45,063 bases of DNA, taken from a virus. Positions within the stretch are counted from its first letter, which is position 1. Each line of letters opens with the position of its first letter. The translations under genes were made by a program, and so were the position numbers. The stretch lies in the IMG/VR virus record IMGVR_UViG_3300025087_002150; one strand, written 5' to 3'. Below are positions 1 to 45,063 of this stretch, one piece after another. The notes beneath the pieces were generated by a model. The model made no database searches. It was not told the DNA's origin and was given only the letters and a program-made list of their open reading frames with translations.

Positions 1-447
1 TCCAACCAAGCCCCAAGCCAAGCCCAAAACCAAGCCCCAAGCCAAGCCCAAAACCAAGCCCCAAGCCAAGCCCAAAACCAATCCAAAAACCAAGCCCGCA
101 ACCAAACCCCCAATCAAGCTCACAACAGAATATCTCCTTAGCTTTTCAAAACCATTCTTTCTCCAAGCGCAGAAAGTAATTGCACTCAAGCCAATCAGAA
201 CATAATTGAAAAGGGCATTTGGGATGACTATGAGCATCTCGAATGTAACTTCCTCTGGCTTCATCCCGAAAATATCAAATAATCCCCATGTCTTGATGGA
301 ATGATATACCCAGAAGGCCGTGAAAGCTAGTGTAAGCAAGAATACAGGAAGAAGATACCATTTCTTGCGTTGAACTTTCCTTTTGGAAAGCTGGCTCTCT
401 AAGTGGGCTATCCTTTCTTCAAGCTGTTTCTGGTTCTGCTTTTTCAT
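1..447 (-). CDS. Membrane protein with GLVLGLAW repeats (partial, runs off window start)
   Basis: Manual translation from ATG at 447 (overlaps stop of 444..638): MKKQNQKQLEERIAHLE...GLVAGLVFGLVLGLAWGLVLGLAWGLVLGLAWGLVG; no stop before base 1; absent from ORF track. Confidence 0.7.
   Translation of the reverse strand, partial: MKKQNQKQLEERIAHLESQLSKRKVQRKKWYLLPVFLLTLAFTAFWVYHSIKTWGLFDIFGMKPEEVTFEMLIVIPNALFNYVLIGLSAITFCAWRKNGFEKLRRYSVVSLIGGLVAGLVFGLVLGLAWGLVLGLAWGLVLGLAWGLVG
6..77. repeat. 3 x 24-bp tandem repeat CCAAGCCCCAAGCCAAGCCCAAAA
   Basis: Read directly; encodes GLVLGLAW on the minus strand. Confidence 0.9.
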
Positions 448-638
448 GTTATCTTCCCTTCATCAAGCTCAAGCGAGAACAATATAAACAAGGGAATTAA
501 AAAAGAGATAAACACCACTTCCCAAACAGGTGTCTTAAGATTAAGATATCTAACACTGATTAAACTAAAGAGTAAGAGGTAAACAAAATAACCCGCACAA
601 AAAAGCAATCCTTTTCGCCAATTAAATTTGACTTTCAT
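444..638 (-). CDS. Small two-TM membrane protein
   Basis: Two hydrophobic segments; stop overlaps next ATG. Confidence 0.7.
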   Translation of the reverse strand: MKVKFNWRKGLLFCAGYFVYLLLFSLISVRYLNLKTPVWEVVFISFLIPLFILFSLELDEGKIT

Positions 639-727
639 TTTTCCTTCCTTGACATTTTACTTTTATTTATACTTTGTTTTGCTCTTATTTTATTTATTGT
701 TTCATGTTATCTCCCTGATAATATAAA

Positions 728-747
728 GGGCGGGATTTCTCCCGCCC
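728..747 (-). terminator. GC-rich hairpin (8-bp stem GGGCGGGA/TCCCGCCC) followed by TTT on minus strand
   Basis: Perfect inverted repeat in the 639-806 intergenic gap. Confidence 0.5.
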
Positions 748-806
748 CTCGACCTCCGCTGTAATGGCCTCACTCCACTCCAGCGACGAGTTTTGTGGGC
801 CTGTAG

Positions 807-1145
807 TTAAACGGCTATAATGCCCCACTCTATATCAGCAGGGGAGTGCGTATCCGCATCAATGGAGGCACTTCTCTCAAATGTGTAGCCGTATGTATTC
901 CCGATGCTTCGTGTCGCCAGATGGCAGGAAGAGAGTGCCTTACCATCCTTTTTGCTCCCTTTAAACTGCTGATTATGTCCCCCTCCCTCATCTCCTTCAA
1001 TACCCATTTCTTTTAACAATCCACTTAATCTTTTAAACGCATCCAACAGATATTCTCTCCTTGTTTCTCCACGTTTAAGATGAGCCTCAAATAATAAGTC
1101 TCTAATGAAATCTATTTTCTTAGTTTCCAAAAATTCACTATCCAT
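807..1145 (-). CDS. Hypothetical protein
   Basis: ORF track 807..1157; start moved to MDSEF, which follows GGAGAGG and overlaps the upstream stop. Confidence 0.5.
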   Translation of the reverse strand: MDSEFLETKKIDFIRDLLFEAHLKRGETRREYLLDAFKRLSGLLKEMGIEGDEGGGHNQQFKGSKKDGKALSSCHLATRSIGNTYGYTFERSASIDADTHSPADIEWGIIAV

Positions 1146-1263
1146 CTTCCTCTCCATCTATGAACTGAATTGCTCTTATCTCTTCCTCGTTCAATATGCA
1201 AAGGGGCTTGAAGCAGAACCATTGCTTAATGAATGGTATTTTTACTATGAGTGTCTTTTTCAT
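1138..1263 (-). CDS. Small hypothetical protein (MKKTLIVK...DGEEDG)
   Basis: ATGA-coupled start inside track ORF 1138..1347. Confidence 0.5.
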   Translation of the reverse strand: MKKTLIVKIPFIKQWFCFKPLCILNEEEIRAIQFIDGEEDG

Positions 1264-1430
1264 ATTGTTTTTAGCTTCTCCCAATCTTCTTTGCTGATTA
1301 TCACTGAAATCATACCTATGGAGTGCACCGAAAAAAGATTTCCACATGTAATTTGTATTACTTCTTTACCAGGCGATATAATTTTCCTGATTTCCACATC
1401 ATAAGCTTTGTTCAATCCTTTGACTTTCAT
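1260..1430 (-). CDS. Small hypothetical protein, 56 aa (MKVKGLNKAYDVEI...)
   Basis: Manual translation; SD AGGAG upstream, coupled at both ends; below the track length cutoff. Confidence 0.6.
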   Translation of the reverse strand: MKVKGLNKAYDVEIRKIISPGKEVIQITCGNLFSVHSIGMISVIISKEDWEKLKTI

Positions 1431-1585
1431 TTTAACTCCTTTGAAAATAATTTTTCAAACCTTTCAACAATTTTAATTCTGCATTTGTCACAGATTCTTG
1501 CATCACCCTCTTTGCTCTCACTACATGAAAACATGGGCATGCCCAGAGCATTTGTTCCTATTTCGAGTTTATGTTTCTTTTTCAT
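1427..1585 (-). CDS. Small Cys-containing protein
   Basis: Track ORF 1427..1636 with start moved to MKKKHK; CxxC near C-terminus. Confidence 0.5.
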   Translation of the reverse strand: MKKKHKLEIGTNALGMPMFSCSESKEGDARICDKCRIKIVERFEKLFSKELK

Positions 1586-1589
1586 CCTT

Positions 1590-1835
1590 TCATCCTCGTT
1601 TATTTTCAAACTCTCCTGCACAAGTAGAACTTGCATTATGCCTATGATATTTACCTTTATTTTTATTTGAAACCTTGTGTTCCCACCCTTCGGCTATAGA
1701 TAAACATCTGTTTGAACACCACCCAGCAAACTCATGCTTATCTTTCTTCTCAGATTTAATGTTATAATATTGCCAAGTTTCAAAAGCCGCAAGCTCATAA
1801 CAATTCAGGCATCTTCCCTTTATTACTTTTTTCAT
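1590..1835 (-). CDS. Zn-finger protein
   Basis: CLNC...CSNRC; ATGA-coupled. Confidence 0.6.
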   Translation of the reverse strand: MKKVIKGRCLNCYELAAFETWQYYNIKSEKKDKHEFAGWCSNRCLSIAEGWEHKVSNKNKGKYHRHNASSTCAGEFENKRG

Positions 1836-2119
1836 CTTCTCCTCTCCTTCTTCCTAAGATAGTATGCCTTCTGGTATGCCTTATACTTGGCTGTCTTCTG
1901 ATATGCCTTCTGATATGCCTTCTGGTATGCCTTATACTTGGCTGTCTTCTGATATGCCTTCTGATATGCCTTCTGGTATGCCTTATACTTGGCTGTCTTC
2001 TGATATGCCTTCTGGTATGCCTTCAGGTATTCTCTTATGCACTTCTGCTTTCCGCAAGTCTTTTGGAATAACCACGGATTCTCTATTTTTCTGTTACAGA
2101 TTATGCAGTTTATTTTCAT
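1832..2119 (-). CDS. Zn-finger protein with expanded KAYQ/KTAKY basic repeat tail
   Basis: CIIC...TCGKQKC then ~3 copies of a 17-aa repeat; paralog at 38392..38574. Confidence 0.75.
   Translation of the reverse strand: MKINCIICNRKIENPWLFQKTCGKQKCIREYLKAYQKAYQKTAKYKAYQKAYQKAYQKTAKYKAYQKAYQKAYQKTAKYKAYQKAYYLRKKERRR
1862..2024. repeat. Intragenic tandem repeat, ~51-bp unit built from 12-bp TCTG(A/G)TATGCCT subunits
   Basis: Read directly; unit lengths are multiples of 3. Confidence 0.9.
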
Positions 2120-2170
2120 CCTTCCTCCTCGCTTCCTCCCACTCTTCCTCTGATTCAGGCCAGTCTGGTT

Positions 2171-2452
2171 TCATCCTTCCTCTCCGAAAAGCTCTGCTTT
2201 TAGCTCTTTCAATTCTAAAACTCTTCCAGAGATTAATGCTCTGTTCCCTTCTGGAAGTTCTGCTTCTGTTAAGACTTCTTGATGAACACTTACCCTTAAA
2301 TCAACCTTCTCCCTCATCTTTATCAGGTGCGCAAGGTGGCGTTGAGTTGCGTTGAGAGTTCCTTTTTCGAAATCGCCTTCTTTCAATCCCATTTTACCTA
2401 TCATCTTATCTAGCTCCTCGCATTCCTTTTCAAGCTCTTTTATGGTTGTCAT
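2171..2452 (-). CDS. Paralog family A member 1 (MTTIKELEKE...QRHLAHL...ELKAELFGEEG)
   Basis: Start moved to MTTIKE (ATGA overlap with upstream stop); shares three blocks with 2790, 3513 and 38571 ORFs. Confidence 0.75.
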   Translation of the reverse strand: MTTIKELEKECEELDKMIGKMGLKEGDFEKGTLNATQRHLAHLIKMREKVDLRVSVHQEVLTEAELPEGNRALISGRVLELKELKAELFGEEG

Positions 2453-2790
2453 CTCAAGTCCCTCGCCCACCTTACCCCGAGCGCAGAATTCGGGACCAGC
2501 GGATACTTGCTGCAATCGAGGTCAACCCTGATGGAGCAGGCGACGAACCCCGCGACCAGTCCTTTTTCTTTATTCAATCTGAACGGCTGCGCGAAAAAGG
2601 AATCATTCCAGCCAGTGAACATCTTCAACTTTTCTGCATATTTGCTATTAGCTAGCCATACTACTTCGTTTATCCTCTGCATACGCCAGTCTTTAGGCTT
2701 GAGGCGCATGCACTCTTGATAAGTCTTACCTTTATGCAGAACTTCTGCGCTTACTTCTATCTTCAGTTCTGGTATTTTTATTGTTTTCAT
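2449..2790 (-). CDS. Small protein with DGR-target-like (CLec/FGE-type) C-terminus
   Basis: Ends VAGFVACSIRVDLDCSKYPLVPNSALGVRWAR, matching the xFxAxSxxxxLxCxxxPxxSxxxLGVRF pattern of DGR variable regions; start MKTIKIPELK via TAATG overlap. Confidence 0.6.
   Translation of the reverse strand: MKTIKIPELKIEVSAEVLHKGKTYQECMRLKPKDWRMQRINEVVWLANSKYAEKLKMFTGWNDSFFAQPFRLNKEKGLVAGFVACSIRVDLDCSKYPLVPNSALGVRWARDLR
2470..2556 (-). other. Putative DGR variable region (VR)
   Basis: Locally GC-rich; variable positions are NNC/NNT codons (GTC, TGC, ATC, GAC, GAT, AGC, TAT, GTC) derivable from AAC/AAT by A-only changes. Confidence 0.55.
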
Positions 2791-3083
2791 TATTTTTTGC
2801 CTCCTTCCTCTCCGAAAAGCTCTGCTTTTAATTGCAACTTTATTTTTGCACAAGCAATTCTTCTCCAGTTCATCTTTCCCTTGTGCTTTCTCTCTTCTGC
2901 TAAGATTCTTTCTTCAATCCAATCAGCATTTTCGACCTTCTCCCGCATCTCCTTCAGGTGTGCAAGGTGACGCTGAATTACCTTGAGAATTGCCATATCG
3001 ACATCGTCTTTTGTCCAGTGCCCGAAATCTATCTTTTTCTCAAGCTCCTTACATTCCTTCTCAAGTTCTTTTATTGTTGTCAT
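2790..3083 (-). CDS. Paralog family A member 2
   Basis: MTTIKELEKE...QRHLAHLKEMREKV...LKAELFGEEG. Confidence 0.75.
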   Translation of the reverse strand: MTTIKELEKECKELEKKIDFGHWTKDDVDMAILKVIQRHLAHLKEMREKVENADWIEERILAEERKHKGKMNWRRIACAKIKLQLKAELFGEEGGKK

Positions 3084-3117
3084 TTTTTAACTCCGAGATT
3101 ATCTCTTTCTCTTATCT

Positions 3118-3516
3118 TCATCCTTCTACTCCAAAAAGCTTTTTGTTTTTACCAAAATTCTTGAAAGTGTATTTATGGCAGTTTTTGCATAAGGTAATGC
3201 AATTTTCTTTATCAAATTCGAGCTCTGGATGGGATTTGACTGGCTTAATGTGATGCACTTCTAAAGCATAATCGTCCTTTGATTTAAATCCACATTTCTG
3301 ACAGGTAAATTTATCCCTTTCCCTGACTTCTCTTCTCACCACATTCCAGTCTTTTATTGTTGGCTTCACAAATTTTTCGAACACTTCATCAGAACATTCA
3401 TCCGAACAATATTTTTTACGATATTTCGGTAGAGATTTTTGGCAATAAGCACACCTTCCCTTTTCTTTTTGTTTAAAGTCACTCATTTTAAAGCCGATTG
3501 AATATTGTTGTCTCAT
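3118..3516 (-). CDS. HNH endonuclease with N-terminal Zn finger
   Basis: VRERDKFTCQKCG...LEVHHIKP...ENCITLCKNCH; N-terminal CAYC...CSDEC. Confidence 0.9.
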   Translation of the reverse strand: MRQQYSIGFKMSDFKQKEKGRCAYCQKSLPKYRKKYCSDECSDEVFEKFVKPTIKDWNVVRREVRERDKFTCQKCGFKSKDDYALEVHHIKPVKSHPELEFDKENCITLCKNCHKYTFKNFGKNKKLFGVEG

Positions 3517-3773
3517 CCTTCCTCTCCGAAAAGCTCTGCTTTGAGCTCATTTCTAATTTCCTTCCTTATATGCGCTTGCAGTTTAGCATATTTGAATTCA
3601 TGGCATGCGAAGAAAAAATCAATTTTCTTCCGTATCTCCTTCAGGTGCTCGAGGTGGCGCTTTGTTGCTTCTATCTTTCCTACAGCAACCCCAAAATCAT
3701 ATCTTCCAAGCAGTTCCCCCTTTGATTCTTCAAGCCTTTCTACTTCCTTTTCTAAAATATCAATTTCAATCAT
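3513..3773 (-). CDS. Paralog family A member 3
   Basis: MIEIDILEKE...KRHLEHLKEIRKK...ELKAELFGEEG; start inferred from ATGATTGA overlap. Confidence 0.7.
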   Translation of the reverse strand: MIEIDILEKEVERLEESKGELLGRYDFGVAVGKIEATKRHLEHLKEIRKKIDFFFACHEFKYAKLQAHIRKEIRNELKAELFGEEG

Positions 3774-3978
3774 CTCCATGCTCCCCCTTAATCCTATGGC
3801 AGAAACTGCATGACCATTCTGTTTTCCCATCTTTCCCATGTTCAGTAGTTCTTTTCATATCCCCGACATTAATATCAAATAATTTTCTACAGAACACACA
3901 TCTTTTAATATTACAATCACAATCGGATTCCTCTCGATGACAATGATTACAAAATAATTTAACAGTCCATCGGTTCAT
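3766..3978 (-). CDS. Cys-rich Zn-binding protein
   Basis: CNHC..CDC..CVFC..CSFC; paralog of 39544..39798. Confidence 0.7.
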   Translation of the reverse strand: MNRWTVKLFCNHCHREESDCDCNIKRCVFCRKLFDINVGDMKRTTEHGKDGKTEWSCSFCHRIKGEHGDD

Positions 3979-3982
3979 TTTT

Positions 3983-4054
3983 TCATCTTTCCTCTCCGAA
4001 AAGCTCTGCTTTGAGCTCTTCCTTCTTCAACCATCTTACTTCGACATGGGTCAT
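3983..4054 (-). CDS. 23-aa mini-ORF made mostly of the family A C-terminal block
   Basis: MTHVEVRWLKKEELKAELFGEER*, ATGA-coupled to the upstream gene. Confidence 0.45.
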   Translation of the reverse strand: MTHVEVRWLKKEELKAELFGEER

Positions 4055-4434
4055 TTCTCTACCCACCCTAGGTTCTTCAGTGCTACCTTCTCATACTTGA
4101 ATATCTTAGGATGTTCACTATTCTTTATAGGTATGAATGTAACATGATACTTGAATTGCCCAAAAGTGCTCTTGTTTACTAGACCAAAGCTTTCCATCTC
4201 CCTTAGAATCTCATAACCCCTTGAGTAGCTAACTCTAAGGAACTCCGACAAGTCCCTAGCTGACACACTTTGCTCTTTCCTAAATCTTCCCGAACAGAAT
4301 AATATAGTCTGGCAGAAACTCCTCCCACCAAGCCTAGAGTATATTGCTTCCTCTGTGTTCCGCTCCTGTATCTTTTCAAGGAACTTCTTCAACTCCTCAT
4401 CTTCTTTTTCCGAATAGGGCTTTTTTGTTTCCAT
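4051..4434 (-). CDS. Winged-helix DNA-binding protein
   Basis: VSARDLSEFLRVSYSRGYEILREMESFGLV HTH plus wing pattern. Confidence 0.7.
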   Translation of the reverse strand: METKKPYSEKEDEELKKFLEKIQERNTEEAIYSRLGGRSFCQTILFCSGRFRKEQSVSARDLSEFLRVSYSRGYEILREMESFGLVNKSTFGQFKYHVTFIPIKNSEHPKIFKYEKVALKNLGWVEK

Positions 4435-4606
4435 ATTTCCTCGCTTCTATAACTCCTTCTTTAATCAAGATATTGACATATCTCCTGGCAGTGACCTGTG
4501 AAATTTGGAATGCTAGGGCTATGTTGGTTATGTAAGTAATCCCGTTATCTTCCAAGTTCCTAGATAGGATATACTCTTTGATTTTCTCTTTTAATAGGTT
4601 TCTCAT
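4397..4606 (-). CDS. Small winged-helix transcription regulator
   Basis: ITNIALAFQISQVTARRYVNILIKEGVIEARKYGNK. Confidence 0.75.
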   Translation of the reverse strand: MRNLLKEKIKEYILSRNLEDNGITYITNIALAFQISQVTARRYVNILIKEGVIEARKYGNKKALFGKRR

Positions 4607-4812
4607 TTCAACTTAGCCTTTGCCTCCGCCATCTTCTTCTCAAGTTCCTTTATTTCGGTTTGTGCACTTTTCTTTTCTCTGTTAGCTACTATGTATCTAT
4701 TGCAGGCACTCTGAACCAGAGACTGATGATACCTTTTCTCAAGGGAAGTTATCCTCTTCATAATCTCCTTTATCATTCTATTTTCCCTTTCCTTGTCAGT
4801 TAATTTTCTCAT
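4603..4812 (-). CDS. Coiled-coil hypothetical protein
   Basis: Coupled ORF, heptad-like C-terminus. Confidence 0.6.
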   Translation of the reverse strand: MRKLTDKERENRMIKEIMKRITSLEKRYHQSLVQSACNRYIVANREKKSAQTEIKELEKKMAEAKAKLK

Positions 4813-5183
4813 CTTTCTTTACCTCCTTGAAGAATATTTTTAAATAAATCAATAACTTTTGTAAATTTTCCTTGTTTATCTAATACTTCATCTCCCGCCT
4901 CTAAATTTTCAATAGATTTAACTCCCTCTTTAGTAAATATTTTTGTTCCTTCAATCAAACATCGGTCTTTGAAGTATGGGGGAATTAAAGTTCCTTTAAG
5001 AAATCCTTTTTCTCCTATCTTAGTTCTGAAGACTATTGCCCTTTTTCCGCTTCTTTCTATCAGGCTTTCTAAGGTTGTGGTCTTCCCGCTTTCGTGGGCA
5101 AGTCCAGTAACGATTAGATGGGCTGGCGCAATATTAACCTCATCCCCAGTCTTCAATTCATATCCTAACTTTATTTGTTTCAT
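4809..5183 (-). pseudogene. HerA-like P-loop ATPase N-terminus fused to an intein N-terminal fragment (truncated or split)
   Basis: HLIVTGLAHESGKTT Walker A, then CLIEGTKIFTKEGVKSIENLEAGDEVLD (intein block A/N2); stops ~50 aa into the intein. Confidence 0.7.
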
Positions 5184-5245
5184 GCGAAATCCAAGATAGC
5201 CACCTTTATAAACTTTCCATACCTTTATATACCTTTAGATAGTAG
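5184..5245 (-). promoter_or_regulatory. Archaeal BRE-TATA promoter, likely leaderless
   Basis: GAAAG-TTTATAAA (5205-5212) 21 nt upstream of ATG 5183; a second TATATAAA lies just upstream. Confidence 0.65.
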
Positions 5246-5272
5246 TTAATCTTATTATTCTTATTCTTATTC

Positions 5273-5695
5273 TTATTCTTCCGACTTGTAAACTATATAA
5301 TCTGGAGAATTTGGTCCTATCTTATACTCTTCTTTCTTGAGTGCTATCTTCATTCCAGGAATCACTTTCCCATCTTTAATAACATCTCGTAACTTGTTTC
5401 CATCTCTCTCTTCCCCAGGAGTAATTCCATTAATCCTTTCCTTCCCATTATGTAGGGAAAGATTTATCTTCCCATCTAAAGCCTTCCATCCATTTCCAAT
5501 CTTTTCCATTTTCACTCCTCCATCCTCAAATACTTGTTTCTGCCTGAACTTATTGTAAAAGACAAATGCAACCCATTGAATATCCTGAACAGGCTTATGG
5601 ATTTGCACGGGGCAGTCCTGCTTCACCTTCTCCATAAACTCATTTACCTTCTTACACAGCTCTTCTGGATTGCTATCTTTGAATGTTTTTATCAT
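5273..5695 (-). CDS. Hypothetical protein; C-terminal half resembles DUF736-type beta proteins
   Basis: KIGNGW...INLSL...NSPDYIVY pattern; family call is a visual impression only. Confidence 0.55.
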   Translation of the reverse strand: MIKTFKDSNPEELCKKVNEFMEKVKQDCPVQIHKPVQDIQWVAFVFYNKFRQKQVFEDGGVKMEKIGNGWKALDGKINLSLHNGKERINGITPGEERDGNKLRDVIKDGKVIPGMKIALKKEEYKIGPNSPDYIVYKSEE

Positions 5696-5816
5696 TTTTC
5701 AAGTCTATTGTCATTAAATGCTCACGGCAGACAAACACTTTCTTTCCAGAAAGCTCTTTAGTCCCGATAACTACACCCCTAAAACCTTCCAAATCACAAT
5801 AGTAGCAATTTATCAT
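5673..5816 (-). CDS. 47-aa Zn-finger mini-protein (MINCYYC...CREH)
   Basis: Manual translation; ATGA-coupled to 5813..6352. Confidence 0.6.
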   Translation of the reverse strand: MINCYYCDLEGFRGVVIGTKELSGKKVFVCREHLMTIDLKNDKNIQR

Positions 5817-6352
5817 CCTATTTCTTCCCCCCGTAATTCCTGCCCTCTTAATTCGATTTCCAGTTCGATATCCCTCTGCAACGAAGGTCCAATATCAGAA
5901 CTTCTGACTTGCCCCCTCAAAGATTCTAAACTCCTCTCACTTCTAGCTCTACCTACCCTTTCCGAGAATGCTTCTGCCAAGGCTCTCCTTTCCTCCCTTG
6001 TCCCGAATTTCTCCTCTCTAACTTCTCTTATAGCTCTCCTTTCTAAATCAGTTTTCGCTCTCTTTTCAAGTTGGGTAAAATCACTTTCTCGGAAGGTTTT
6101 TTCCTTTATCCTATTTCTAAAGATTATTGCTATTCTTTCTTCGCCTATTTGTCTCTCTGTCTCTCTAATAACTTCCGCTCTCCCTAGAACTTTCGCAACA
6201 GCTCTTCCGTGGGTGGGGGTCTTTTCAAAAGCTCTTACAATCCTCTTTTGCTCCTCGACAATATCTCTTATCGAAGTCGCATTTTCTAGAACAGAATCTA
6301 AATTCATCAATCTTGGATTTAATGTCCAACTAACTAATTTGTCCGTTGCCAT
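5813..6352 (-). CDS. Highly charged helical protein
   Basis: R/E-rich ORF directly downstream of the primase. Confidence 0.65.
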   Translation of the reverse strand: MATDKLVSWTLNPRLMNLDSVLENATSIRDIVEEQKRIVRAFEKTPTHGRAVAKVLGRAEVIRETERQIGEERIAIIFRNRIKEKTFRESDFTQLEKRAKTDLERRAIREVREEKFGTREERRALAEAFSERVGRARSERSLESLRGQVRSSDIGPSLQRDIELEIELRGQELRGEEIG

Positions 6353-12800: not shown

Positions 12801-12801
12801 G

Positions 12802-35578: not shown

Positions 35579-35620
35579 CCCCCATTAAGCTTCCTAAGAT
35601 TATTTGCTCTGATATTTTGT

Positions 35621-37276: not shown

Positions 37277-37319
37277 CTTACCCCTATCGCTCCGCTCTTT
37301 TATTCATCACTTTTATTCA

Positions 37320-37442: not shown

Positions 37443-37464
37443 TTTATAGATAGACATACAGATT

Positions 37465-38030: not shown

Positions 38031-38395
38031 TTTTCAATATTCTCCTCAAAATTCTTAGGTTTCTCTATCTGCTTCAAGTCGGAAGCACGAATGACAAATT
38101 GAATATCGCCATCATTATTGTAGGTCTGCCCGAACTTATAGATGTCGGCAAGAGGGATAGTATGATACTCTACCTTATCCTTCTCATTAACATAATGGCA
38201 GACAACACCAACTATATGATATTTTCTTCTTAATTCGGCAAGTAGCTCCTGCGAGATTGCAAAGAAGGAGTGAAAAATCCCGAAGTAATGCTTCTTGTAT
38301 TCCCTTCTTGTGTAATAGACATTCCCCTTTGATGAAGGGAATACCCAACCGACCATCTCTGGTCTGCCATCCAGCTTCCAATAGATTTTATTCAT
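38021..38395 (-). CDS. Hypothetical viral protein
   Basis: Coupled ORF. Confidence 0.65.
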   Translation of the reverse strand: MNKIYWKLDGRPEMVGWVFPSSKGNVYYTRREYKKHYFGIFHSFFAISQELLAELRRKYHIVGVVCHYVNEKDKVEYHTIPLADIYKFGQTYNNDGDIQFVIRASDLKQIEKPKNFEENIEKWL

Positions 38396-38574
38396 CTTTC
38401 CTCCTTCTTCCTAAGATAGTATGTCTTCTGGTATGCCTTATATTTGGCCGTCTTCTGGTATGTCTTCTGGTTTTCCCTATGTCGTTCTCTTTGGCAGTTC
38501 AACTTTCCGCAAGTTTTCTGCCACAGGCTCGGATTCTCTATTTCCTTTTTACAGATTTTGCACTTTTTTTTCAT
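38392..38574 (-). CDS. Zn-finger protein, single-repeat paralog of 1832..2119
   Basis: MKKKCKICKKEIENPSLWQKTCGKLNC...QKTAKYKAYQKTYYLRKK; lies within track ORF 38392..38700. Confidence 0.7.
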   Translation of the reverse strand: MKKKCKICKKEIENPSLWQKTCGKLNCQRERHRENQKTYQKTAKYKAYQKTYYLRKKEER

Positions 38575-38846
38575 CCTTTCTCTCCGAAAAGCTCTTGTTC
38601 TACTATGGCGCAGAATCCAGCGAATCTGCCTTTTTGCTCTGGGTGCGTTTTCATCTGCCTTAGCTTCTCCCGCATCTCCTTCAGGTGGGTGAGGTGGCAC
38701 TGGGTTGCTTTAAGTTCTCCCTGTAACCTGTTAAGCTTACTTTCATAGAGAGTTACATTTATGAAATTTCCCTCTCTTAATCCTATTTTATCTATCTTCT
38801 TTTCAAGCTCCTGTTCTTTCTTCTCAAGTTCTTCAAAGGTAAGCAT
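38571..38846 (-). CDS. Paralog family A member 4
   Basis: EELEKKEQELEKKID...TQCHLTHLKEMREK...ELFGEKG. Confidence 0.75.
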   Translation of the reverse strand: MLTFEELEKKEQELEKKIDKIGLREGNFINVTLYESKLNRLQGELKATQCHLTHLKEMREKLRQMKTHPEQKGRFAGFCAIVEQELFGEKG

Positions 38847-38994
38847 CTTTTATTTCCTCCTCTATTCTTATTCTCCTATATTGATATTCATCCAAATTAT
38901 AAGTTCCAGTTGGATATATACACCGCATTATTCGGCTCATTAACTTTGAGACCTTCTTTTCCTTCTCAAGTTCTTTTATTGTTTTCATTTTCAT
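38833..38994 (-). CDS. 53-aa protein with the family A N-terminal block only
   Basis: MKMKTIKELEKEK then unrelated sequence. Confidence 0.5.
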   Translation of the reverse strand: MKMKTIKELEKEKKVSKLMSRIMRCIYPTGTYNLDEYQYRRIRIEEEIKDAYL

Positions 38995-39086
38995 CTGTTC
39001 TCCCCCTTAACCGCTTTCTCTATACATTCATCGCAGTAAGGAACATCCTTTTCTACTTTTGCTTTCCTGCAAGTTTTACATTTCAT
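38991..39086 (-). CDS. 31-aa Zn-finger mini-protein
   Basis: MKCKTC...YCDEC; coupled at both ends. Confidence 0.55.
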   Translation of the reverse strand: MKCKTCRKAKVEKDVPYCDECIEKAVKGENR

Positions 39087-39190
39087 TCTTCCCCTCCATG
39101 ACACTTACATTTGCAACTTCGCCATCTAGCTTTCAGATTGCCTTTTTTGCAGTCCTTACAATCTCCTCTTCTACATCTGCCTGTTTTCAT
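39083..39190 (-). CDS. 35-aa Cys-rich mini-protein
   Basis: MKTGRCRRGDCKDC...CKCKCHGGEE after the GGAGAGGAAGG motif. Confidence 0.5.
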   Translation of the reverse strand: MKTGRCRRGDCKDCKKGNLKARWRSCKCKCHGGEE

Positions 39191-39437
39191 CCTTCCTCTC
39201 CTCAAGCTCTCGCTTCCTCCCACTCTTCCTCTGATTCTGGCTACCAAGACCAAGAGCAACACCAAAAACAACAGCAACAAGAGCACCAACACCAACGCCA
39301 AAAACAAGAGCAACATCAACGTCAACGCCAATAGCAACACCAACGCCAAAAACAAGAGCACCAGAAATAACAAGAGCACCAAGAGCACCAAGACCAAGAG
39401 CACCACTTTCCGTCTCAAGTTCTTTTATCATTTTCAT
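39171..39437 (-). CDS. Gly/Val/Ala-rich low-complexity membrane protein
   Basis: MKMIKELETE start coupled to the upstream stop; reading frame ambiguous. Confidence 0.45.
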   Translation of the reverse strand: MKMIKELETESGALGLGALGALVISGALVFGVGVAIGVDVDVALVFGVGVGALVAVVFGVALGLGSQNQRKSGRKRELEERKDENRQM

Positions 39438-39543
39438 AATCTTTCTCCCATCCTCTCAAGAGCATCGGCTATCCTCTTAAGCTGTGCGTGTATGTTCAAC
39501 GCTATTGTTTCATCCATATTTTAGTCCGTAACTGCCCTGCGGT

Positions 39544-39798
39544 TCATCCATATTCTCTTCCCTTGTCCAGACAGAAGTCGCAAACGAGTTCATAGTCCTC
39601 GCCATCAACCTTCATCCTGTTCAAGAAGTCAGCTTCAAGATAATCCTCACATAAAGCACACTTATCACAATTACATTCCTTGTCCTCTTTCTTGCAGTAG
39701 CCACATACTATCCTGACCTGCCATCTCTTTCTTACCTCTGCCCTAAATGGCAAGTCATAAAGCTGTTCATATATTTGTTCTTCCATTTTTATCTCCAA
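39544..39798 (-). CDS. Cys-rich Zn-binding protein, paralog of 3766..3978
   Basis: RWQVRIVCGYC..ECNC..CALC..CDFC. Confidence 0.7.
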   Translation of the reverse strand: MEIKMEEQIYEQLYDLPFRAEVRKRWQVRIVCGYCKKEDKECNCDKCALCEDYLEADFLNRMKVDGEDYELVCDFCLDKGREYG

Positions 39799-40125
39799 CT
39801 ACAACAATAACACTTTCCTCACAAACTCCTGCCTTTTCCTCTCTCCCTCTTTTGAAATCTTTAATTTTCTTTTGTTGCCAACACCGACCTGTAAGATATA
39901 CCCCCCCTTAATCAATCCGTTAATAATCCTCGTTGTATACACATATTCTACTTTCAGACAAGAAGATATATACGAAGCAGTTTTATTTTTATCTTCTATC
40001 TGGTGGAGTAATTGAAGTATTCTCCATTCAGTTTTTCTAATTCCTATCTCTTTTTCAAGGTTATCCATTCTACGCTGTTCTTGTAGTAGTAGTTCTATTC
40101 CCTTTATATATTTTTCTCTACCCAT
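39799..40125 (-). CDS. MarR-like winged-helix protein
   Basis: WRILQLL...ASYISS...TRIINGLIKGGYI...KRKLKISKEG. Confidence 0.75.
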   Translation of the reverse strand: MGREKYIKGIELLLQEQRRMDNLEKEIGIRKTEWRILQLLHQIEDKNKTASYISSCLKVEYVYTTRIINGLIKGGYILQVGVGNKRKLKISKEGERKRQEFVRKVLLL

Positions 40126-40512
40126 CTTCCAGCTTATCCAACATTTTCTTCATATCATCTTCTGTATTCTTCAAAACCCACTCTGACTTTTTAATCTGCA
40201 TAGTGAGTATCTTAGCCAGAAATTCCTCGTCTTCTTTGGTCAGTTCTTTCATCTTCTCTCCTTATCTTCAATAATGATACAGATTATAAAGCCAAAAATA
40301 TTGTATGGCTCTCTCTCAAAAAGAAATACGTTATAAGTAATGCGTAGCTAATCAACATATACATTTGACTATTTTTCATCTTCTTCTCCGAACTTCTCTA
40401 AACAAAAATCACAAACCATCTCTGTAGCCCCTTCATCAAATTTAGTCCTCTGCATAAAAGTTAGTTCCATCATTTACCTCACCCATACAAGACTAAGACC
40501 TCTTTATCCTCT

Positions 40513-40734
40513 TTAGTTAGTTCCATCATTCACCTCAAACTCCAGCATCTTTTTTACATCTTCTAATCTAAATCTTAATTGCTCTCTTAAATCAAAAACA
40601 ACAAGTCTTTCCTCTATCTGCTCAAGCAAGGCAAGAATATCGCTTTTCGCCTGTGCTTTATGGTATCTTTCGTATTCTTGTTCCATTTTCAAATTTTCAT
40701 ATAACACTCTGTTCCATAGTTTAATATAATCCAA
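40513..40734 (-). CDS. Hypothetical helical protein
   Basis: Track ORF; start uncertain. Confidence 0.45.
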   Translation of the reverse strand: MDYIKLWNRVLYENLKMEQEYERYHKAQAKSDILALLEQIEERLVVFDLREQLRFRLEDVKKMLEFEVNDGTN

Positions 40735-40808
40735 TCAACAAAAGTATCAATACAACAAAGTGTCCTATCAAAAGGATGGCTTCCCCAGTAGGTAATGTAA
40801 CTCTCATT

Positions 40809-41387
40809 TTATTTTTTCACCATCATCATTTCGGGATTAAATCTCTCTATTTGCTCTTGTGATATTATCATCTTCTCTTGTCTTTTCTCAACAATTAACT
40901 GCTGTGATAAAGTTTCAATACTTCCCCAACCCAATATAAGCATGAGGAAATCACCTTTAGGCACAAGATAGGCTATATAGAATTTATAGCCCCCGTTTGA
41001 AAATAGAAACTCTAATGCTTTGCCTTTTTTAAGTAGGTAATCCTTCAATCTGTTGTTAAGGCACAGGTGATAGCTCTCTGGAATAATATCAAGTGCCTTC
41101 TGCATATCAACTTCTTCATAGCTCTGCACTTCCTTCGTCAGCTTCGCCCTTGCTAGTGGCTTATTATTTACAAGGCGTAGAACCTCGCTGTGTGGCTTCC
41201 CTGCCTCATCTACATAAACATTCCTCAAGCCATCAGAAATAATCGTGCCGTCTTTGAGCATCCTTGCAAACCGCAGGGGCTTACCTTCCTTGCTTACTAT
41301 GGGGTAGCTTTCCCTTAACTTCTCTGGTTGTAATGGCGTATGCAATATCTTATGTTCGCCCACCTGTAATTCTCGCCAGATACTCAT
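40809..41387 (-). CDS. Ku-like (beta-barrel) DNA end-binding protein candidate
   Basis: C-terminal half (EVD...ESYHL...LKDYLLKKGKAL..F.....YIAYLVPKGDFLMLIL) aligns by eye with the prokaryotic Ku core. Confidence 0.45.
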   Translation of the reverse strand: MSIWRELQVGEHKILHTPLQPEKLRESYPIVSKEGKPLRFARMLKDGTIISDGLRNVYVDEAGKPHSEVLRLVNNKPLARAKLTKEVQSYEEVDMQKALDIIPESYHLCLNNRLKDYLLKKGKALEFLFSNGGYKFYIAYLVPKGDFLMLILGWGSIETLSQQLIVEKRQEKMIISQEQIERFNPEMMMVKK

Positions 41388-41767
41388 CTTCCACCACCAT
41401 ATAGATTTTCGTTACATTCTTCCTGATATTTAATACCATCTGGAGTGAGGGTTAATACTCTCTTATTCTTATTCTTAATCTCCCTAACATATCCCTTTAG
41501 CTTTAAGAATGAAATCCTTTTACAAGTAGAGCTGTAATCTCTCTCCATCCTATTTGAGATAAAAATAGCATTTCTATTCTCTTGTCCTACCTGTTTAAGT
41601 ATGGTAAGTATATAGAAGTCCGCCATATTTATCCCTTTCTCTCTTGCTCTTTCCATAAAGTATGGTGGTGGTGGAAGTATATAAATGTTTTGCCTTTTCA
41701 TCTTAATCAAAAGCCACCTCTCCAGCTTCCGCCTGAACGAGCATCCCGTTAAACTCCCTCTCATCAA
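41384..41767 (-). CDS. MarR-like winged-helix protein, paralog of 39799..40125
   Basis: FYILTIL...AIFISNR...KRISFLKLKGYV...KRVLTLTPDG. Confidence 0.75.
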   Translation of the reverse strand: MMRGSLTGCSFRRKLERWLLIKMKRQNIYILPPPPYFMERAREKGINMADFYILTILKQVGQENRNAIFISNRMERDYSSTCKRISFLKLKGYVREIKNKNKRVLTLTPDGIKYQEECNENLYGGGR

Positions 41768-41981
41768 TATAGATAAGACTTTCTCTCAAGCTCTCTATCC
41801 TCTCATTCTTCTCGTTAAGCTCCTCAACCAGCAAGTCAGAAATCAATCTGTGCAGGTCGGTAGGCAACTTAGCATACTGAAATCCCGCAATAAAATCTAA
41901 AATCTCCCTTCTTTCAGCTTCCAAGTCAGCTCTCGCTACTTCTAAAATTTTCTTATTGTCTTGCATTTTCTCATACCTCAA
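41703..41981 (-). CDS. Coiled-coil hypothetical protein
   Basis: Track ORF; SD GAGGT upstream. Confidence 0.55.
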   Translation of the reverse strand: MRYEKMQDNKKILEVARADLEAERREILDFIAGFQYAKLPTDLHRLISDLLVEELNEKNERIESLRESLIYIDEREFNGMLVQAEAGEVAFD

Positions 41982-42108
41982 AAATGTTTTATATTAAAGA
42001 TTATGAACTATTTAAATCTTTTCTTTTCAACAGATTCTATCTCCCCGCCTTTGTCTTACTTCCCATTTCCCATATCCTGCGTGAAATAATTTCGCCTTCG
42101 CCATTTTT

Positions 42109-42264
42109 TCACCTTCTTTTTGTTTTATGTTTCTTTCTATATTCCTTACAAGAAGGATATAAATCCTCCATATCGTGATTCTCTATGAACTTTTCAATAG
42201 CTTCGTCTTTAGTTTCCGCTTCTATAATTTGATTCACATTAACTGAACAAATGTATTTTTTCAT
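42109..42264 (-). CDS. 51-aa hypothetical protein (MKKYICSVNV...EAETKDEAIEK)
   Basis: Manual translation. Confidence 0.55.
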   Translation of the reverse strand: MKKYICSVNVNQIIEAETKDEAIEKFIENHDMEDLYPSCKEYRKKHKTKRR

Positions 42265-42310
42265 TTTTCGCTTTTTCTTATCAATCCATTTCTAATTTTT
42301 TTATTTCTAT

Positions 42311-42547
42311 TTATCTGTTATGGTCATTCTCGAATATCCAATCTCCTGTTCTTTTCTTCCGTGAAGAAGTAGCCAACCCCTTCTTTTCCAGAATAGCCCA
42401 AGTAGTTTTCCCAGTTCTTATATAGTATCTCGCCATCTCGTAGCACTTCCCACATAGCCCTCGTGTCTTCGTCTTCTTTTCCTTGCATTTAGGATTTAAG
42501 CAGACCATTTGATGACTCCTTCCCATATCAACCTTTTGTTCTTTCAT
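42311..42547 (-). CDS. Zn-finger protein
   Basis: CLNPKC...RGLCGKCY. Confidence 0.7.
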   Translation of the reverse strand: MKEQKVDMGRSHQMVCLNPKCKEKKTKTRGLCGKCYEMARYYIRTGKTTWAILEKKGLATSSRKKRTGDWIFENDHNR

Positions 42548-42851
42548 CTTCTACTCCCCTAATAATTATCTTCACAGGCTCTTGTATATCTGAGGCTAAG
42601 TTCGTCATAAGATGCCTCTCTACAAGCCCCAAGATGTTCTCTAGCCTATCCCCATCGGCTGATTTAAAGATAGTGCCGACTTCTATAATCCCGCCTTCAA
42701 TAGCAGTTTCAGTAGTTACGAGAGCTTCCCAGCTCTTCGCTTCATCCTCGTATCTCTTCTTAAGTTCCCTTAGCCTAGCTGTTTCCATTTTGATTTTTGT
42801 CCAATCCTCCACCAGCTCCTTACAGCTATCGGTGACTGCCTCCCATAGCAT
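42528..42851 (-). CDS. Coiled-coil hypothetical protein
   Basis: Track ORF. Confidence 0.6.
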   Translation of the reverse strand: MLWEAVTDSCKELVEDWTKIKMETARLRELKKRYEDEAKSWEALVTTETAIEGGIIEVGTIFKSADGDRLENILGLVERHLMTNLASDIQEPVKIIIRGVEDERTKG

Positions 42852-43034
42852 AATCTCTCATATTCCTTTGCTAACTTTGGATTGATACATTCTAGTGTTC
42901 TTATTATCCCTCGCACTCCTTAAACTTTTTGCAATCACAATGTACTCCACGACAAGGTTCTGTGTTTCTATCGATATATTTATGAGTGAATAGACTATGT
43001 CTACATATACATTTATTTCTTCCCGATTTATCTT

Positions 43035-43328
43035 TCATCCTTCCTCTCCGAAACTTTCTTGGAAAACCCTTTGGTAGTATTCTAAAGTTTCTTCGTTTGG
43101 ATTATAGCTTCTCGTTTCAAACCCTTTAATTCCAGACGTCTGGATATTTGGAAAGGGAAAAGTCAAACAGATTTCTCCCTGTGCTTGTTTCTTAACGACA
43201 TAATCTACAGCTTGTTTATAAGAAAGGCTTCCGTAAGTAAATGTCCTTATTCCGTCTTTAAAACTTACAACACATAACCCTCTGTACTTTATCTCGTTAT
43301 ATTCTAGTAAAGTTAATTTATTTATCAT
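43035..43328 (-). CDS. Hypothetical protein ending in the FGEEG junction motif
   Basis: Body unrelated to family A, same 3' motif. Confidence 0.65.
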   Translation of the reverse strand: MINKLTLLEYNEIKYRGLCVVSFKDGIRTFTYGSLSYKQAVDYVVKKQAQGEICLTFPFPNIQTSGIKGFETRSYNPNEETLEYYQRVFQESFGEEG

Positions 43329-43330
43329 CC

Positions 43331-43624
43331 TTAATTTTTTTCCTGAACTTCGTTTCTATTTATATGTTCTATAAAATCCCATCCTTCTGTATATAGGGCA
43401 TAATAGTCATGTCTTCTTTCAATTCTTCCGAGAATATTTATTTCTTTATCTCCGTTCTCCCAACTTAATTTAACTGACCTTTCTGTAAAGCCATTTAAAA
43501 AATAAGTCTTGGAGAAATCAAGCCGACAATTACCAAGACTTATTTTATTTCTCCCTGTTTTCTCATCTTTCCAACATCTATCTAGTATAGCCTTAACAAG
43601 TTCCTTATTTATTATTTCTGCCAT
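43331..43624 (-). CDS. Hypothetical protein
   Basis: Track ORF. Confidence 0.6.
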   Translation of the reverse strand: MAEIINKELVKAILDRCWKDEKTGRNKISLGNCRLDFSKTYFLNGFTERSVKLSWENGDKEINILGRIERRHDYYALYTEGWDFIEHINRNEVQEKN

Positions 43625-43647
43625 TTTTTCATTTTATTTTCGCCTTT

Positions 43648-43935
43648 CTAAATCATTACTGGGATGATGCGGTCTATTCCCGCAGTCACCAGAACATTAT
43701 CTCTATTGCTAGAGTTCAGGTTATTATCTGGATTTGCTGATTGTGATTTGATGTGGCATTCTTTTTCTCTACAATTCGCTATATGCTTCTGTATTTCTTC
43801 TTCTTTTCTTCTCTCATATCTTTCGTGTGCTTCTCTTGGCGAATAATATCTTCTCCTTCTGGAACAGCCAAGCATCGCATTTATTTCTCTTATTGGGTTT
43901 TCCATTCTTTCCTCTTTCTCTTCAGTCTTGCTCAT
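43648..43935 (-). CDS. Hypothetical protein
   Basis: Coupled ORF. Confidence 0.55.
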   Translation of the reverse strand: MSKTEEKEERMENPIREINAMLGCSRRRRYYSPREAHERYERRKEEEIQKHIANCREKECHIKSQSANPDNNLNSSNRDNVLVTAGIDRIIPVMI

Positions 43936-44237
43936 CTCTTCTCCCTCGCATCTGAAACTTCTTGAGCTTTGGGTTCTCCATCTCTATTAAAATTCTCACC
44001 CTCCCAAAAAGTCCCGAAATCATCTGCGTGTGGGTTAACTTCTTCTCTTAAGCCATCTCTCCTTATCGTATCGTAGTAAGCCCACCTTTCAATCATAGCG
44101 AACATTTCTCTATACCTGCTTTGATTCAATTCTGCTTTTGATATGTTGAACTTTTCTGCCATCATATCAAACATATCTCTCCACGCATTTACTTCATTTC
44201 TTATTTTCACACGTGTTTCATCTTTCATCTTCTTCAT
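43932..44237 (-). CDS. Hypothetical protein
   Basis: Track ORF under a TATA promoter. Confidence 0.6.
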   Translation of the reverse strand: MKKMKDETRVKIRNEVNAWRDMFDMMAEKFNISKAELNQSRYREMFAMIERWAYYDTIRRDGLREEVNPHADDFGTFWEGENFNRDGEPKAQEVSDAREKR

Positions 44238-44298
44238 AATATATAGACACAGGGTAGAATTTTATAAAAATAAAAAAAGAAAAAGAAGAAAAGAAAGA
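44238..44298 (-). promoter_or_regulatory. Oligo-T terminator followed by a leaderless TATA promoter
   Basis: T-rich run after the 44299 stop; TTTATAAA (44261-44268) 23 nt before ATG 44237. Confidence 0.6.
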
Positions 44299-44748
44299 CT
44301 AAAAGTCAATAACCTTCAGCTCTCTTTCCCTTGTTCTGTGGAAGTGTGTTCCGTTGCTCCTGTCAAAAACAAACAAGTCTCTAAACCTAGCCGTAGTAGT
44401 CCCAACGACTTTGCAGTTCTCCTTAATGAACTTGCCTATTTTATGCTGTAACTTGTCGTTGGCTCTGCCCGAAAAGTCTGCCTTAATAAACTGGTTGTCG
44501 TTCTTGTAGTCATCCCTTAGCACTATGTAAAATAAGTGCTCTCTGGTTAAGTCTGCGTGTATGTTGGCTCTGTATTCTCTTAGGAGAGTTAAGAGCCTCT
44601 CGTTCACTTGTGCCTTGCGTTCTCTTGAGCCTCTGCCCCTGCAATCAGTTAAGAGCAAGTTTTTAATGGCTTCTCTTTGTATCTCTGTCCTTCCTCGTTC
44701 CTGTCGTGGCTCACCCCCTTTTATTTGTTGCCTTGTTATTGTTTTCAT
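44299..44748 (-). CDS. Hypothetical protein
   Basis: Coupled ORF. Confidence 0.65.
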   Translation of the reverse strand: MKTITRQQIKGGEPRQERGRTEIQREAIKNLLLTDCRGRGSRERKAQVNERLLTLLREYRANIHADLTREHLFYIVLRDDYKNDNQFIKADFSGRANDKLQHKIGKFIKENCKVVGTTTARFRDLFVFDRSNGTHFHRTRERELKVIDF

Positions 44749-44960
44749 TTTCTTACCTCTAAATGAACTGCAAGAAGTCTATTAAAGAACTCTTGTCTCA
44801 TATCTAAGCCTGTCCACTTCTGAACGATATTCATAGCTTGGTTTAGTTCTGCTTTCTCTTCTTGAGAAAGCTCCTTCACTAATGCTATTGCATCAGCACA
44901 AGTTTTTGCTTCTATATATCGTTGCTTGAAGTCAGCAAATTTATTCTTTTGTGTTTTCAT
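44745..44960 (-). CDS. Hypothetical protein
   Basis: Track ORF 44745..45020 with start moved to MKTQK after the GAGGT leader. Confidence 0.55.
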   Translation of the reverse strand: MKTQKNKFADFKQRYIEAKTCADAIALVKELSQEEKAELNQAMNIVQKWTGLDMRQEFFNRLLAVHLEVRK

Positions 44961-45063
44961 TTTCTCATACCTCAAAAATGTTTTATTTTCTGTTCTGCTT
45001 AACGCATTACTTCTTTTCACGCATTACTCCTTTATATATCTTTCTATACCAACTCTCACATTC

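Follow-up and report, generated by a model that had tools for sequence, protein, structure and literature searches.

A HerA-type ATPase heads a 26-kb operon of membrane and surface proteins in a groundwater archaeal element with no recognisable capsid gene

How would an element that encodes a DNA-translocating ATPase and a long series of membrane and exported proteins, and no recognisable capsid, move its genome from one cell to another? The question is raised by the IMG/VR virus record IMGVR_UViG_3300025087_002150, a stretch of 45,063 nucleotides (nt) which was analysed in full and is called the window in what follows. The window is an entire contig of the Joint Genome Institute (JGI); the ENA copy is the scaffold ANAN16-1...scaffold_381 (45,086 bp), from aquifer groundwater. 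An earlier note, made from the letters alone, had described a tailless, probably enveloped archaeal virus. We favour a lipid-bounded, capsid-less transmissible particle, which would be a virion, enveloped or pleomorphic, or else a plasmid vesicle encoded by the element itself, and give this reading a probability of about 0.55. We infer the virus status and the envelope of the particle from the genes described below.

The window contained approximately 78 open reading frames (ORFs, here designated g01, g02 and so on) organised in three strand blocks. The GC skew changed sign at the borders of these blocks. No tRNA gene was found in the window.

1–7963, minus strand: early/replication arm 1
8216–34324, plus strand: a single late operon of 26 kb
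34397–45020, minus strand: early/replication arm 2

The late operon starts with two overlapping genes.

8216–8713, plus strand: g19, detached N-terminal domain of the ATPase (homology to long ATPase forms)
8698–10035, plus strand: g20, ATPase of the HerA/VirB4-type hexameric-translocase fold, proposed to be the DNA-loading motor (profile and model)

The overlap between g19 and g20 was 16 nt. The g19 product aligned to residues 40–133 of a 600-amino-acid (aa) ATPase homologue in contig L019 (blastp E-value 1.7e-10), and jackhmmer matched it to the fused ATPases of approximately 600 aa in contigs L024 and L028. An exhaustive search recovered 317 representatives of the g20 family clustered at 50% identity; they were full-length and 25–35% identical, and many had a size of about 600 aa. 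As the additional 170 or so N-terminal residues of these long homologues match g19, the two genes correspond to a split form of a single protein. In g20 the Walker A motif was located at approximately residues 66–72 and the Walker B motif, FFIDE, at approximately 314–318, with an arginine and a TQ sensor motif after it. The two Walker motifs were separated by an insert of about 240 residues.

The profile of the ATPase family matched HerA (3.5e-12), STIV B204 (6.4e-7), FtsK (7e-6) and TrwB (3e-3) in the PDB, and there was no terminase among these matches. With g20 as a single sequence no PDB match was obtained, and its Pfam matches were all sub-threshold P-loop models, DUF87 and HerA_C falling short. 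A search by tblastn with g20 and two homologues against phage records gave no match, and g20 against plasmids gave one match at chance level. The AlphaFold model of g20 had a mean predicted local distance difference test (pLDDT) value of 94, and its structural matches were, with their scores:

Sulfolobus solfataricus HerA (4d2i), 28.1, with 323 residues aligned at a root-mean-square deviation of 3.8
HerA-NurA (7f6d), 25.4
VirB4 (4ag5), 25.1, with 317 residues aligned
DndH C-domain, 24.1
TrwB, 19.0
STIV2 B204, 17.6, with 196 of 204 residues aligned

Against the Atlas clusters that carry DUF87 and HerA_C, the model gave TM-scores of about 0.7. The g20 protein thus qualifies as an ATPase of the FtsK-HerA superfamily, as a HerA-fold protein and as a VirB4-like ATPase. 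It had been called an A32-like FtsK/HerA ATPase: profile and model uphold the FtsK/HerA part, whereas A32-like is imprecise for a long and split HerA/VirB4 form. As modelled, the fold by itself does not distinguish a packaging motor from a conjugation-type motor.

A terminase identity was considered for g20 and rejected. The protein matched phrog_2666, labelled "terminase large subunit", with an E-value of 4.9e-15. The alignment joined residues 315–413 of g20 to positions 426–519 of a 555-position profile, i.e., the Walker B and sensor region only; the modelled fold is that of HerA, and phrog_2666 is a HerA-like family. The combination of an ATPase with an RNase H-like nuclease, which defines a terminase large subunit, was not found in the window.

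The gene content downstream of the ATPase was very different from that of the two arms. A hydrophobic segment, called with a 19-residue hydropathy window, was present in 24 of the 32 ORFs that follow the ATPase and in 3 of the 44 early ORFs, namely g01 and g02 in arm 1 and g62 in arm 2 (Fisher p = 5e-10). The late proteins contained 2.1 N-glycosylation sequons per 100 aa, compared with 0.43 in the early proteins. Very basic proteins were also found in the late block, with isoelectric points (pI) of 12 for g36 and g43 and 10.6 for g21. All the late proteins above 280 aa possessed a hydrophobic anchor except g24. The statements of the earlier note that about 25 membrane or secreted proteins follow the ATPase, that basic proteins accompany them and that nearly all the larger late proteins are anchored by transmembrane (TM) segments were therefore borne out.

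Immediately after the ATPase lies the best conserved part of the operon.

10259–13660, plus strand: g22–g27, conserved post-ATPase set (same gene order in relatives)

The g22 protein has a signal and a C-terminal TM segment. The soluble g23 protein is beta-rich at the N-terminus and continues as a coiled coil, and g24 is acidic and, as judged from its sequence, mostly helical. Both g26 and g27 have two TM segments, and no assignment was made for g25. None of the six products matched the PDB or Pfam. Related contigs were compared: L020 (28.9 kb), L022 (52.5 kb), L024 (23 kb), L025, L028 and L009, the ATPases of which are 25–35% identical. Homologues of the set were found in identical order in L009, L020, L022, L024 and L028, and the core common to the relatives consisted of g17, g19, g20, g22, g23, g25–g28, the C-terminus of g31, g33 and g35, the last three being conserved in L022. 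Since this core was kept in spite of an ATPase identity of about 30%, the late module is ancient and maintained by selection, as opposed to a fortuitous succession of membrane-protein genes. In L024, the segment 1009–4081 beside the structural module carried CTP_transf_like, Cupin plus PfkB, Glyco_transf_9 and PAP2 genes (a sugar-nucleotide/heptose-type set), which may be auxiliary glycosylation genes.

The next two genes of the operon encode a candidate major surface protein and a protease.

13761–14834, plus strand: g28, signal-anchored tandem beta-sandwich protein (conservation and model)
14853–15482, plus strand: g29, CPBP (Rce1-like) intramembrane protease with five TM segments (Pfam and motifs)

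In the alignment of eight sequences of the g28 family, a short and basic N-terminus precedes a single TM helix, which is followed by a Gly-rich linker and approximately 300 conserved beta-rich residues. In its corrected frame, g29 matched the Pfam Rce1-like model with an E-value of 3.6e-4, slightly under the cut-off, and displayed the FxxxH and HxxxN motifs. The two genes are adjacent, as are, in L024 and L025, the g28 homologue and an Rce1-like gene downstream of it. The g28 model had a pLDDT of 59 and a predicted TM-score (pTM) of 0.59. Its Foldseek matches in the PDB were Gram-positive shaft pilins and tandem immunoglobulin (Ig)-like proteins, with E-values of about 1e-6 and TM-scores of only 0.2–0.3; the first domain of the model is transthyretin/CnaB-like. 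Neither a jelly-roll nor an HK97 fold appeared among these PDB matches. Another model, from the Atlas, was too poor for use (pLDDT 0.46). The g28 family profile gave only chance matches against the PDB, tblastn of g28 against phages gave no match, and one further relative, L028, was found in metagenome contigs. We conclude that g28 is the best-conserved candidate virion protein, with a predicted fold that is neither HK97 nor jelly-roll.

In the BFVD, the top match of g28 was A0A5Q2WAX2 (E-value 1.5e-13, TM-scores 0.50/0.57), and the third match of g20 was A0A5Q2W8D8 (6e-12, 0.60/0.62). Both proteins are listed as viral in UniProt. Since the two accessions seem to stem from the same deposition batch, a single deposited virus, possibly Nanoarchaeotal virus 1, probably carries both a g28-like and a g20-like gene. 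We also weighed a type IV pilin reading of g28 and discarded it. The hydrophobic helix lies about seven polar residues away from the conserved K-x-G, which is at odds with a class III signal, and the element has neither a prepilin peptidase nor a PilB/FlaI-type ATPase.

The absence of any HK97, terminase, portal or tail motif, and of a recognisable capsid, had been claimed from the sequence. Searches of Pfam and PHROGs found none of these four kinds of family in any ORF, the label of phrog_2666 being the sole such match, and a tailless element without recognisable capsid is what was found at the depth reached, i.e., profiles for all the ORFs and a predicted structure for g28. No confident HK97 or double-jelly-roll protein was detected by profile, and the g28 model is an all-beta sandwich without such a match. 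Searches of g23, g24, g31, g41 and g45 against the PDB by sequence or profile returned only linker or coiled-coil noise, and the Atlas model of g23 was poor (pLDDT 0.52), with structural neighbours at chance level. The Pfam scans of all 78 ORFs (g29 in the corrected frame) showed no integrase or recombinase family. They showed no Peptidase_S8 either, and the CPBP/Rce1-like g29 is the only protease found; the HerA partners NurA, Sir2 and DUF4297 were also absent from the window. Relaxase, coupling protein, VirB6, VirB8 and pilin families were not found in Pfam or NCBIfam, a weak negative as archaeal forms of these proteins are poorly modelled.

The element was not linked to any chromosome. The g20 protein was indexed in 37 collection blocks, in all of which the longest contig was at most 50 kb (in the 20–50 kb class for 15 of the 37). 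The eight places that were read, from eight samples, were 99.96–100% identical to the window. Neither the contigs of the element nor the relatives L020, L022 and L024 had flanking cellular genes; the chromosomal flanks that would have refuted the earlier note were seen on no contig. In pattern-limited scans of IMG/VR and of GTDB (one genome per species), neither the ATPase nor g28 had a relative. The metagenome-assembled genome GCA_036747635.1 in NCBI holds both pieces of the element as contigs 5 and 39; this is a binning effect and no sign of integration. Contigs of at most 50 kb in all 37 blocks and the lack of cellular flanks support an autonomous replicon with its own replication genes, as opposed to a chromosomal region.

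These replication genes are distributed in the two arms.

1–7963, minus strand: arm 1, about 18 ORFs, mostly small and basic (ORF map, Pfam/PHROG)
3118–3516, minus strand: HNH endonuclease (Pfam/PHROG)
4051–4434, minus strand: TrmB-like winged helix-turn-helix protein (Pfam/PHROG)
4809–5183, minus strand: P-loop plus Hint fragment (Pfam/PHROG)
6334–7704, minus strand: g17, archaeo-eukaryotic primase domain of PriS type (NCBIfam PriS models)
34397–45020, minus strand: arm 2, about 24 small ORFs (ORF map)
34397–35578, minus strand: g53, AAA+-like protein (phrog_1250, 1.2e-23; weak Hda/DnaI-type matches)
35906–37276, minus strand: g55, ATP-dependent DNA ligase with LAGLIDADG domain (DNA_ligase_A_M 1.2e-17, LAGLIDADG_3 1.2e-11)

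Residues 5–138 of g17 matched two PriS models of NCBIfam (1.4e-12 and 6.5e-12, under the equivalog cut-off), and homologues were present in the relatives L022, L020 and L009. Judging from these matches, g17 is the probable replicase/primase of the element. Several small ORFs showed TrmB-type, MarR-type and LSM domains in Pfam, and relatives of the element encode Alba and TrmB. A box of the TTTATA type was located 25–30 nt upstream of several gene starts. The PriS-type primase, TrmB, LSM, the Alba of a relative and the TATA-like boxes together indicate that the element is archaeal. The Alba-family chromatin protein is encoded at 13184–13459 in L020, which suggests an archaeal host and an element that brings its own DNA-coating protein. 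A host belonging to DPANN, as proposed earlier, is a possibility to which the habitat points.

Several features of the arms deserve a short description. The ORF at 4809–5183 encodes 124 aa in which a P-loop N-terminus, weakly matching FtsK_SpoIIIE, is followed by the first 40 or so residues of a Hint/intein domain and a stop; it represents a decayed gene or, alternatively, a split intein. In g55 the LAGLIDADG homing-endonuclease domain is located upstream of the adenylation domain, as an intein or a fusion. Other gene calls give g55 a size of 551 aa compared with 456 aa here, and its start is probably further upstream, perhaps up to about position 37560. Diverged repeats common to both arms were observed in gene 5' regions at 1829–2127 and 38386–38582, with a 51-nt tandem array at 1863–2038 inside the repeat region. 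A motif of approximately 42 nt, made of a stop, a ribosome-binding site and a start, was present in seven copies across both arms, among them 2168–2209, 2796–2837, 3510–3551, 3980–4021, 38568–38609 and 43032–43073. The inter-arm repeats suggest paralogous families of small genes and a shuffling of cassettes between the arms.

The remainder of the late operon is dominated by small membrane proteins and by surface proteins.

15503–19279, plus strand: g30–g38 (hydropathy and pI)
15717–17534, plus strand: g31, Cys-rich exported protein of 605 aa with a C-terminal anchor
18529–18801, plus strand: g36, basic protein of pI 12
19290–25584, plus strand: g39–g46, variable surface cassette
23061–23330, plus strand: g43, basic paralogue of g36
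25597–32387, plus strand: g47 (1408 aa) and g48 (794 aa), beta-helix proteins resembling adhesins or depolymerases (Pfam, sequons)
33147–33785, plus strand: g50, membrane-anchored nuclease of the staphylococcal-nuclease fold (Pfam SNase 1.6e-5; PHROG endonuclease 4.2e-5)

Seven of the ORFs in g30–g38 are small, and six of these have hydrophobic segments. The matches of g31 in the PDB were of the linker type only. In the cassette, g39 is Ig-like (Big_13, under the Pfam threshold), g40 carries a CBM96 domain (Pfam 3.3e-20), g41 is a Cys/Gly-rich anchored protein and g45 and g46 are exported proteins; g41 and g45 had no match among PDB sequences. The g47 and g48 proteins both have a signal at the N-terminus and an anchor at the C-terminus. 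Pfam assigned to g47 Beta_helix (1.5e-12), NosD, DUF7743 and Big_13 (Ig-like), and g48 reached 21.4 bits for NosD, the cut-off being 23.6. The adhesins announced in the late block are thus represented by g39, g40, g47 and g48. As they are rich in N-X-S/T sequons (82 in g47, i.e., 5.8 per 100 aa, and 44 in g48, i.e., 5.5 per 100 aa), g47 and g48 are probably glycosylated. A direct repeat of 99 nt, 99% identical, was found at 18502–18600 and 23034–23132. Each copy takes in the last part of one gene together with the initial 24 or so codons of g36 or g43. Between the copies lies a 4.5-kb cassette with surface genes of the Ig-like, CBM96 and Cys/Gly-rich kinds, which would be excised cleanly if the copies recombined.

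The window does not comprise the whole genome of the element. On the left, it breaks at the 3' end of g01, within a (CCAAGC)n tract, and in two other assemblies the sequence extends at least 1.74 kb further, with four small unannotated ORFs. The (CCAAGC)n tract, a 24-nt tandem repeat at 4–119, encodes a Gly/Leu/Trp-rich tail of g01 on the minus strand. On the right, the contigs L010, L011 and L013, which are independent assemblies of different samples, end at the same base, 42 nt past the end of the ENA copy; this base may mark either the physical end of the genome or a point at which assembly breaks off. A pattern scan for the right end gave no match, and in Logan contigs the region 42500–44748 was covered in one continuous stretch, with no loose ends or joints. 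Because assemblies extend past the window and the outer ends do not overlap, the full genome measures about 47 kb, whether linear or circular, of which about 1.8 kb is missing from the window. A 46-nt promoter-like repeat (TATA-like box followed by GAGGT, 85% identical) was present at 41950–41995 and 44944–44989. In view of this repeat, the circular permutation of the right-end genes in the 3-kb contig L014 is probably an assembly loop. There was no RNA run among the 15 runs listed for the element.

We propose the following scheme for a lipid-bounded particle. The split ATPase g19 plus g20 would form a ring motor at the membrane and load the DNA of the element into a budding membrane compartment, with the small membrane proteins g22, g26 and g27 as a conduit or docking site for the motor. 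The proteins g36 and g43, with their pI of 12, could condense the DNA. The major conserved surface protein would be g28, possibly trimmed by the adjacent CPBP protease g29, and g39, g40, g47 and g48 would bind the next host. The two outward-facing early arms would supply replication through the primase, the AAA+ protein, the ligase, the HNH nuclease and many small DNA-binding proteins. A narrower form of this reading, that of a large, undescribed lineage of capsid-less, lipid-enveloped archaeal viruses which package about 47 kb of dsDNA with a split HerA-type ring motor and have as main virion protein a g28 processed by the CPBP protease, is possible and is put forward tentatively; if true, it would represent a virion architecture and a morphogenesis route outside all current virus realms. 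Several points weigh against the lipid-bounded particle. It is predicted here from the genes, and among these none was recognised as belonging to a known family of vesicle-budding, fusion or matrix proteins. The lack of a capsid was assessed by profiles for all the ORFs and by a predicted structure for g28 only, at a pLDDT of 59, and the negatives of the fold searches hold among the matches listed. The two outer ends of the genome do not overlap, and three assemblies stop at one base.

The main competitor, which we consider rather doubtful, is a plasmid with contact-dependent transfer or secretion, in which the ATPase would pump DNA through a pore of small membrane proteins and the adhesins would hold the cells together. 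The pT26-2 plasmids possess a comparable block of 12 genes with nine TM proteins and a HerA/VirB4/B204-like ATPase (PMC6972569, PMC2926602), and the transthyretin/CnaB-like first domain of g28 recalls the large protein of that block. The ATPase family profile also finds the pT26-2 protein t26-14p, with Walker A and B in comparable positions, but the match reaches 25.8 bits on the motifs alone, and the g22, g23 and g28 profiles are silent in pT26-2. The Pfam searches did not detect the families that such a transfer plasmid would be expected to have, i.e., relaxase, coupling protein, VirB6-like or pilin. Furthermore, the very basic small late proteins, the virus-like early/late layout and the HNH and homing endonucleases fit a packaged genome better, and two UniProt-listed viral proteins are among the best structural matches. 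In tailless icosahedral viruses with an internal membrane, of the PRD1, STIV or sphaerolipovirus style, the ATPase stands at the head of the structural operon and adjoins small membrane proteins. The same arrangement is found here, and since g28 is the single late ORF with a usable fold, a diverged jelly-roll capsid protein might be encoded by an unmodelled late ORF. This seems unlikely: g20 is twice the size of the A32 type and nearer to HerA and VirB4, g28, the best conserved of the large late proteins, is not predicted to be a jelly-roll, the late proteins above 280 aa other than g24 are membrane-anchored, which is unusual for a capsid protein, and no capsid family was found in PHROG or Pfam. 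Least probable are, on the one hand, an island of the chromosome or a machine of the cell surface in a small archaeon and, on the other hand, a divergent tailed virus. The binning of the element into GCA_036747635.1 would suit an island, yet its contigs never enter cellular genes within their 50 kb at most, and it has primase, ligase and AAA+ genes of its own. The phrog_2666 label would suit a tailed virus, but the match is limited to the Walker B and sensor region of a HerA fold, and terminase is absent among the structural matches.

How does the element compare with known systems? No published description of its family was found. The A32-like ATPases such as STIV2 B204 and PRD1 P9 differ from g20, which is twice as long, has a separate N-terminal domain (g19) and an insert of about 240 residues, scores higher against HerA and VirB4, and is not accompanied by a detectable jelly-roll capsid protein. 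Unlike cellular HerA in HerA-NurA and defence systems, g20 is encoded by a mobile element, amid genes for exported proteins in the same operon. The Pleolipoviridae (HRPV-1, with VP3, VP4, ORF6, ORF7 and the VP8 NTPase) are close in concept: the virion is a membrane vesicle without capsid in which a spike is anchored, and small membrane proteins and an NTPase complete the set. However, the genome of the element is three to six times larger, and the pleolipovirus NTPase is described as AAA+ (10.1101/2025.02.15.638363), versus HerA-type here. No PHROG family was matched by g22–g31, g39–g41 or g45–g48, no pleolipovirus family was present among the 25 PHROG matches listed for the small late ORFs, and none was found in Pfam for the late proteins.

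The pT26-2 family of Thermococcales and Methanococcales is closer. Its conserved block contains a HerA/VirB4/B204-like ATPase of about 433–445 aa, a carbohydrate-binding protein and a large protein that is hydrophobic at both ends and carries a carboxypeptidase-regulatory (transthyretin-like) domain; the authors proposed a role in DNA transfer or secretion and likened it to pR1SE (PMC2926602, PMC6972569). As in these plasmids, the present element has a syntenic block dominated by TM proteins around such an ATPase, and no capsid. The pT26-2 elements differ in that they measure 17–38 kb, encode integrases of the SSV type and mostly replication proteins of the MCM type, and live in hyperthermophilic hosts, whereas the present element encodes a PriS-type primase and a ligase, with no integrase found. 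All the pT26-2 proteins were compared by hmmsearch and phmmer with the window proteins and with the ATPase, g22, g23 and g28 profiles; the window proteins themselves gave no significant match. Of the seven core proteins t26-5p, t26-6p, t26-7p, t26-11p, t26-13p, t26-14p and t26-15p, only t26-14p was matched, and the alignment was confined to Walker A and the Walker B/sensor region.

The pR1SE-like plasmid-vesicle elements of haloarchaea (apHPVs) spread within vesicles that are formed by the products of their own core genes, ten in number and comprising ORF6–9, ORF17, ORF21 and ORF23–25; these products include a protease, S-layer, Big, PKD and lectin-like proteins and the ATPase ORF25, whose model matches VirB4, TrwB, HerA and STIV2 B204 (PMC10818511). 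This is the same set of matches as obtained for g20, and the analogy with pR1SE drawn in the earlier note is a fitting one. Compared by published description, both are autonomous archaeal replicons of tens of kilobases that lack a capsid protein and share a core of unannotatable exported and membrane proteins, a dedicated protease and beta-sandwich, PKD or lectin-like surface proteins. They differ in the protease, ORF7 of pR1SE being an S8 subtilase and that of the element a CPBP protein, and in the haloarchaeal hosts of pR1SE. The element therefore resembles the pR1SE-like and pT26-2 groups by analogy, and membership of one or the other could not be demonstrated. The border between plasmids and viruses is blurred by archaeal elements whose DNA travels in membrane particles of their own making; up to now, such elements have been known from haloarchaea (pR1SE) and suspected in Thermococcales (pT26-2). 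The present element extends to archaea of a cold aquifer the capsid-less design made of a HerA/VirB4 motor, a protease, an anchored beta-sandwich protein and adhesins, in a gene family that is populated in metagenomes and has no detectable homology to the pT26-2 core. If particles are confirmed, they would constitute a new virion type or DNA-transfer route for poorly known groundwater archaea, and g19/g20, g22, g23, g26–g28 and the CPBP protease would provide a set of genes with which to search metagenomes for it.

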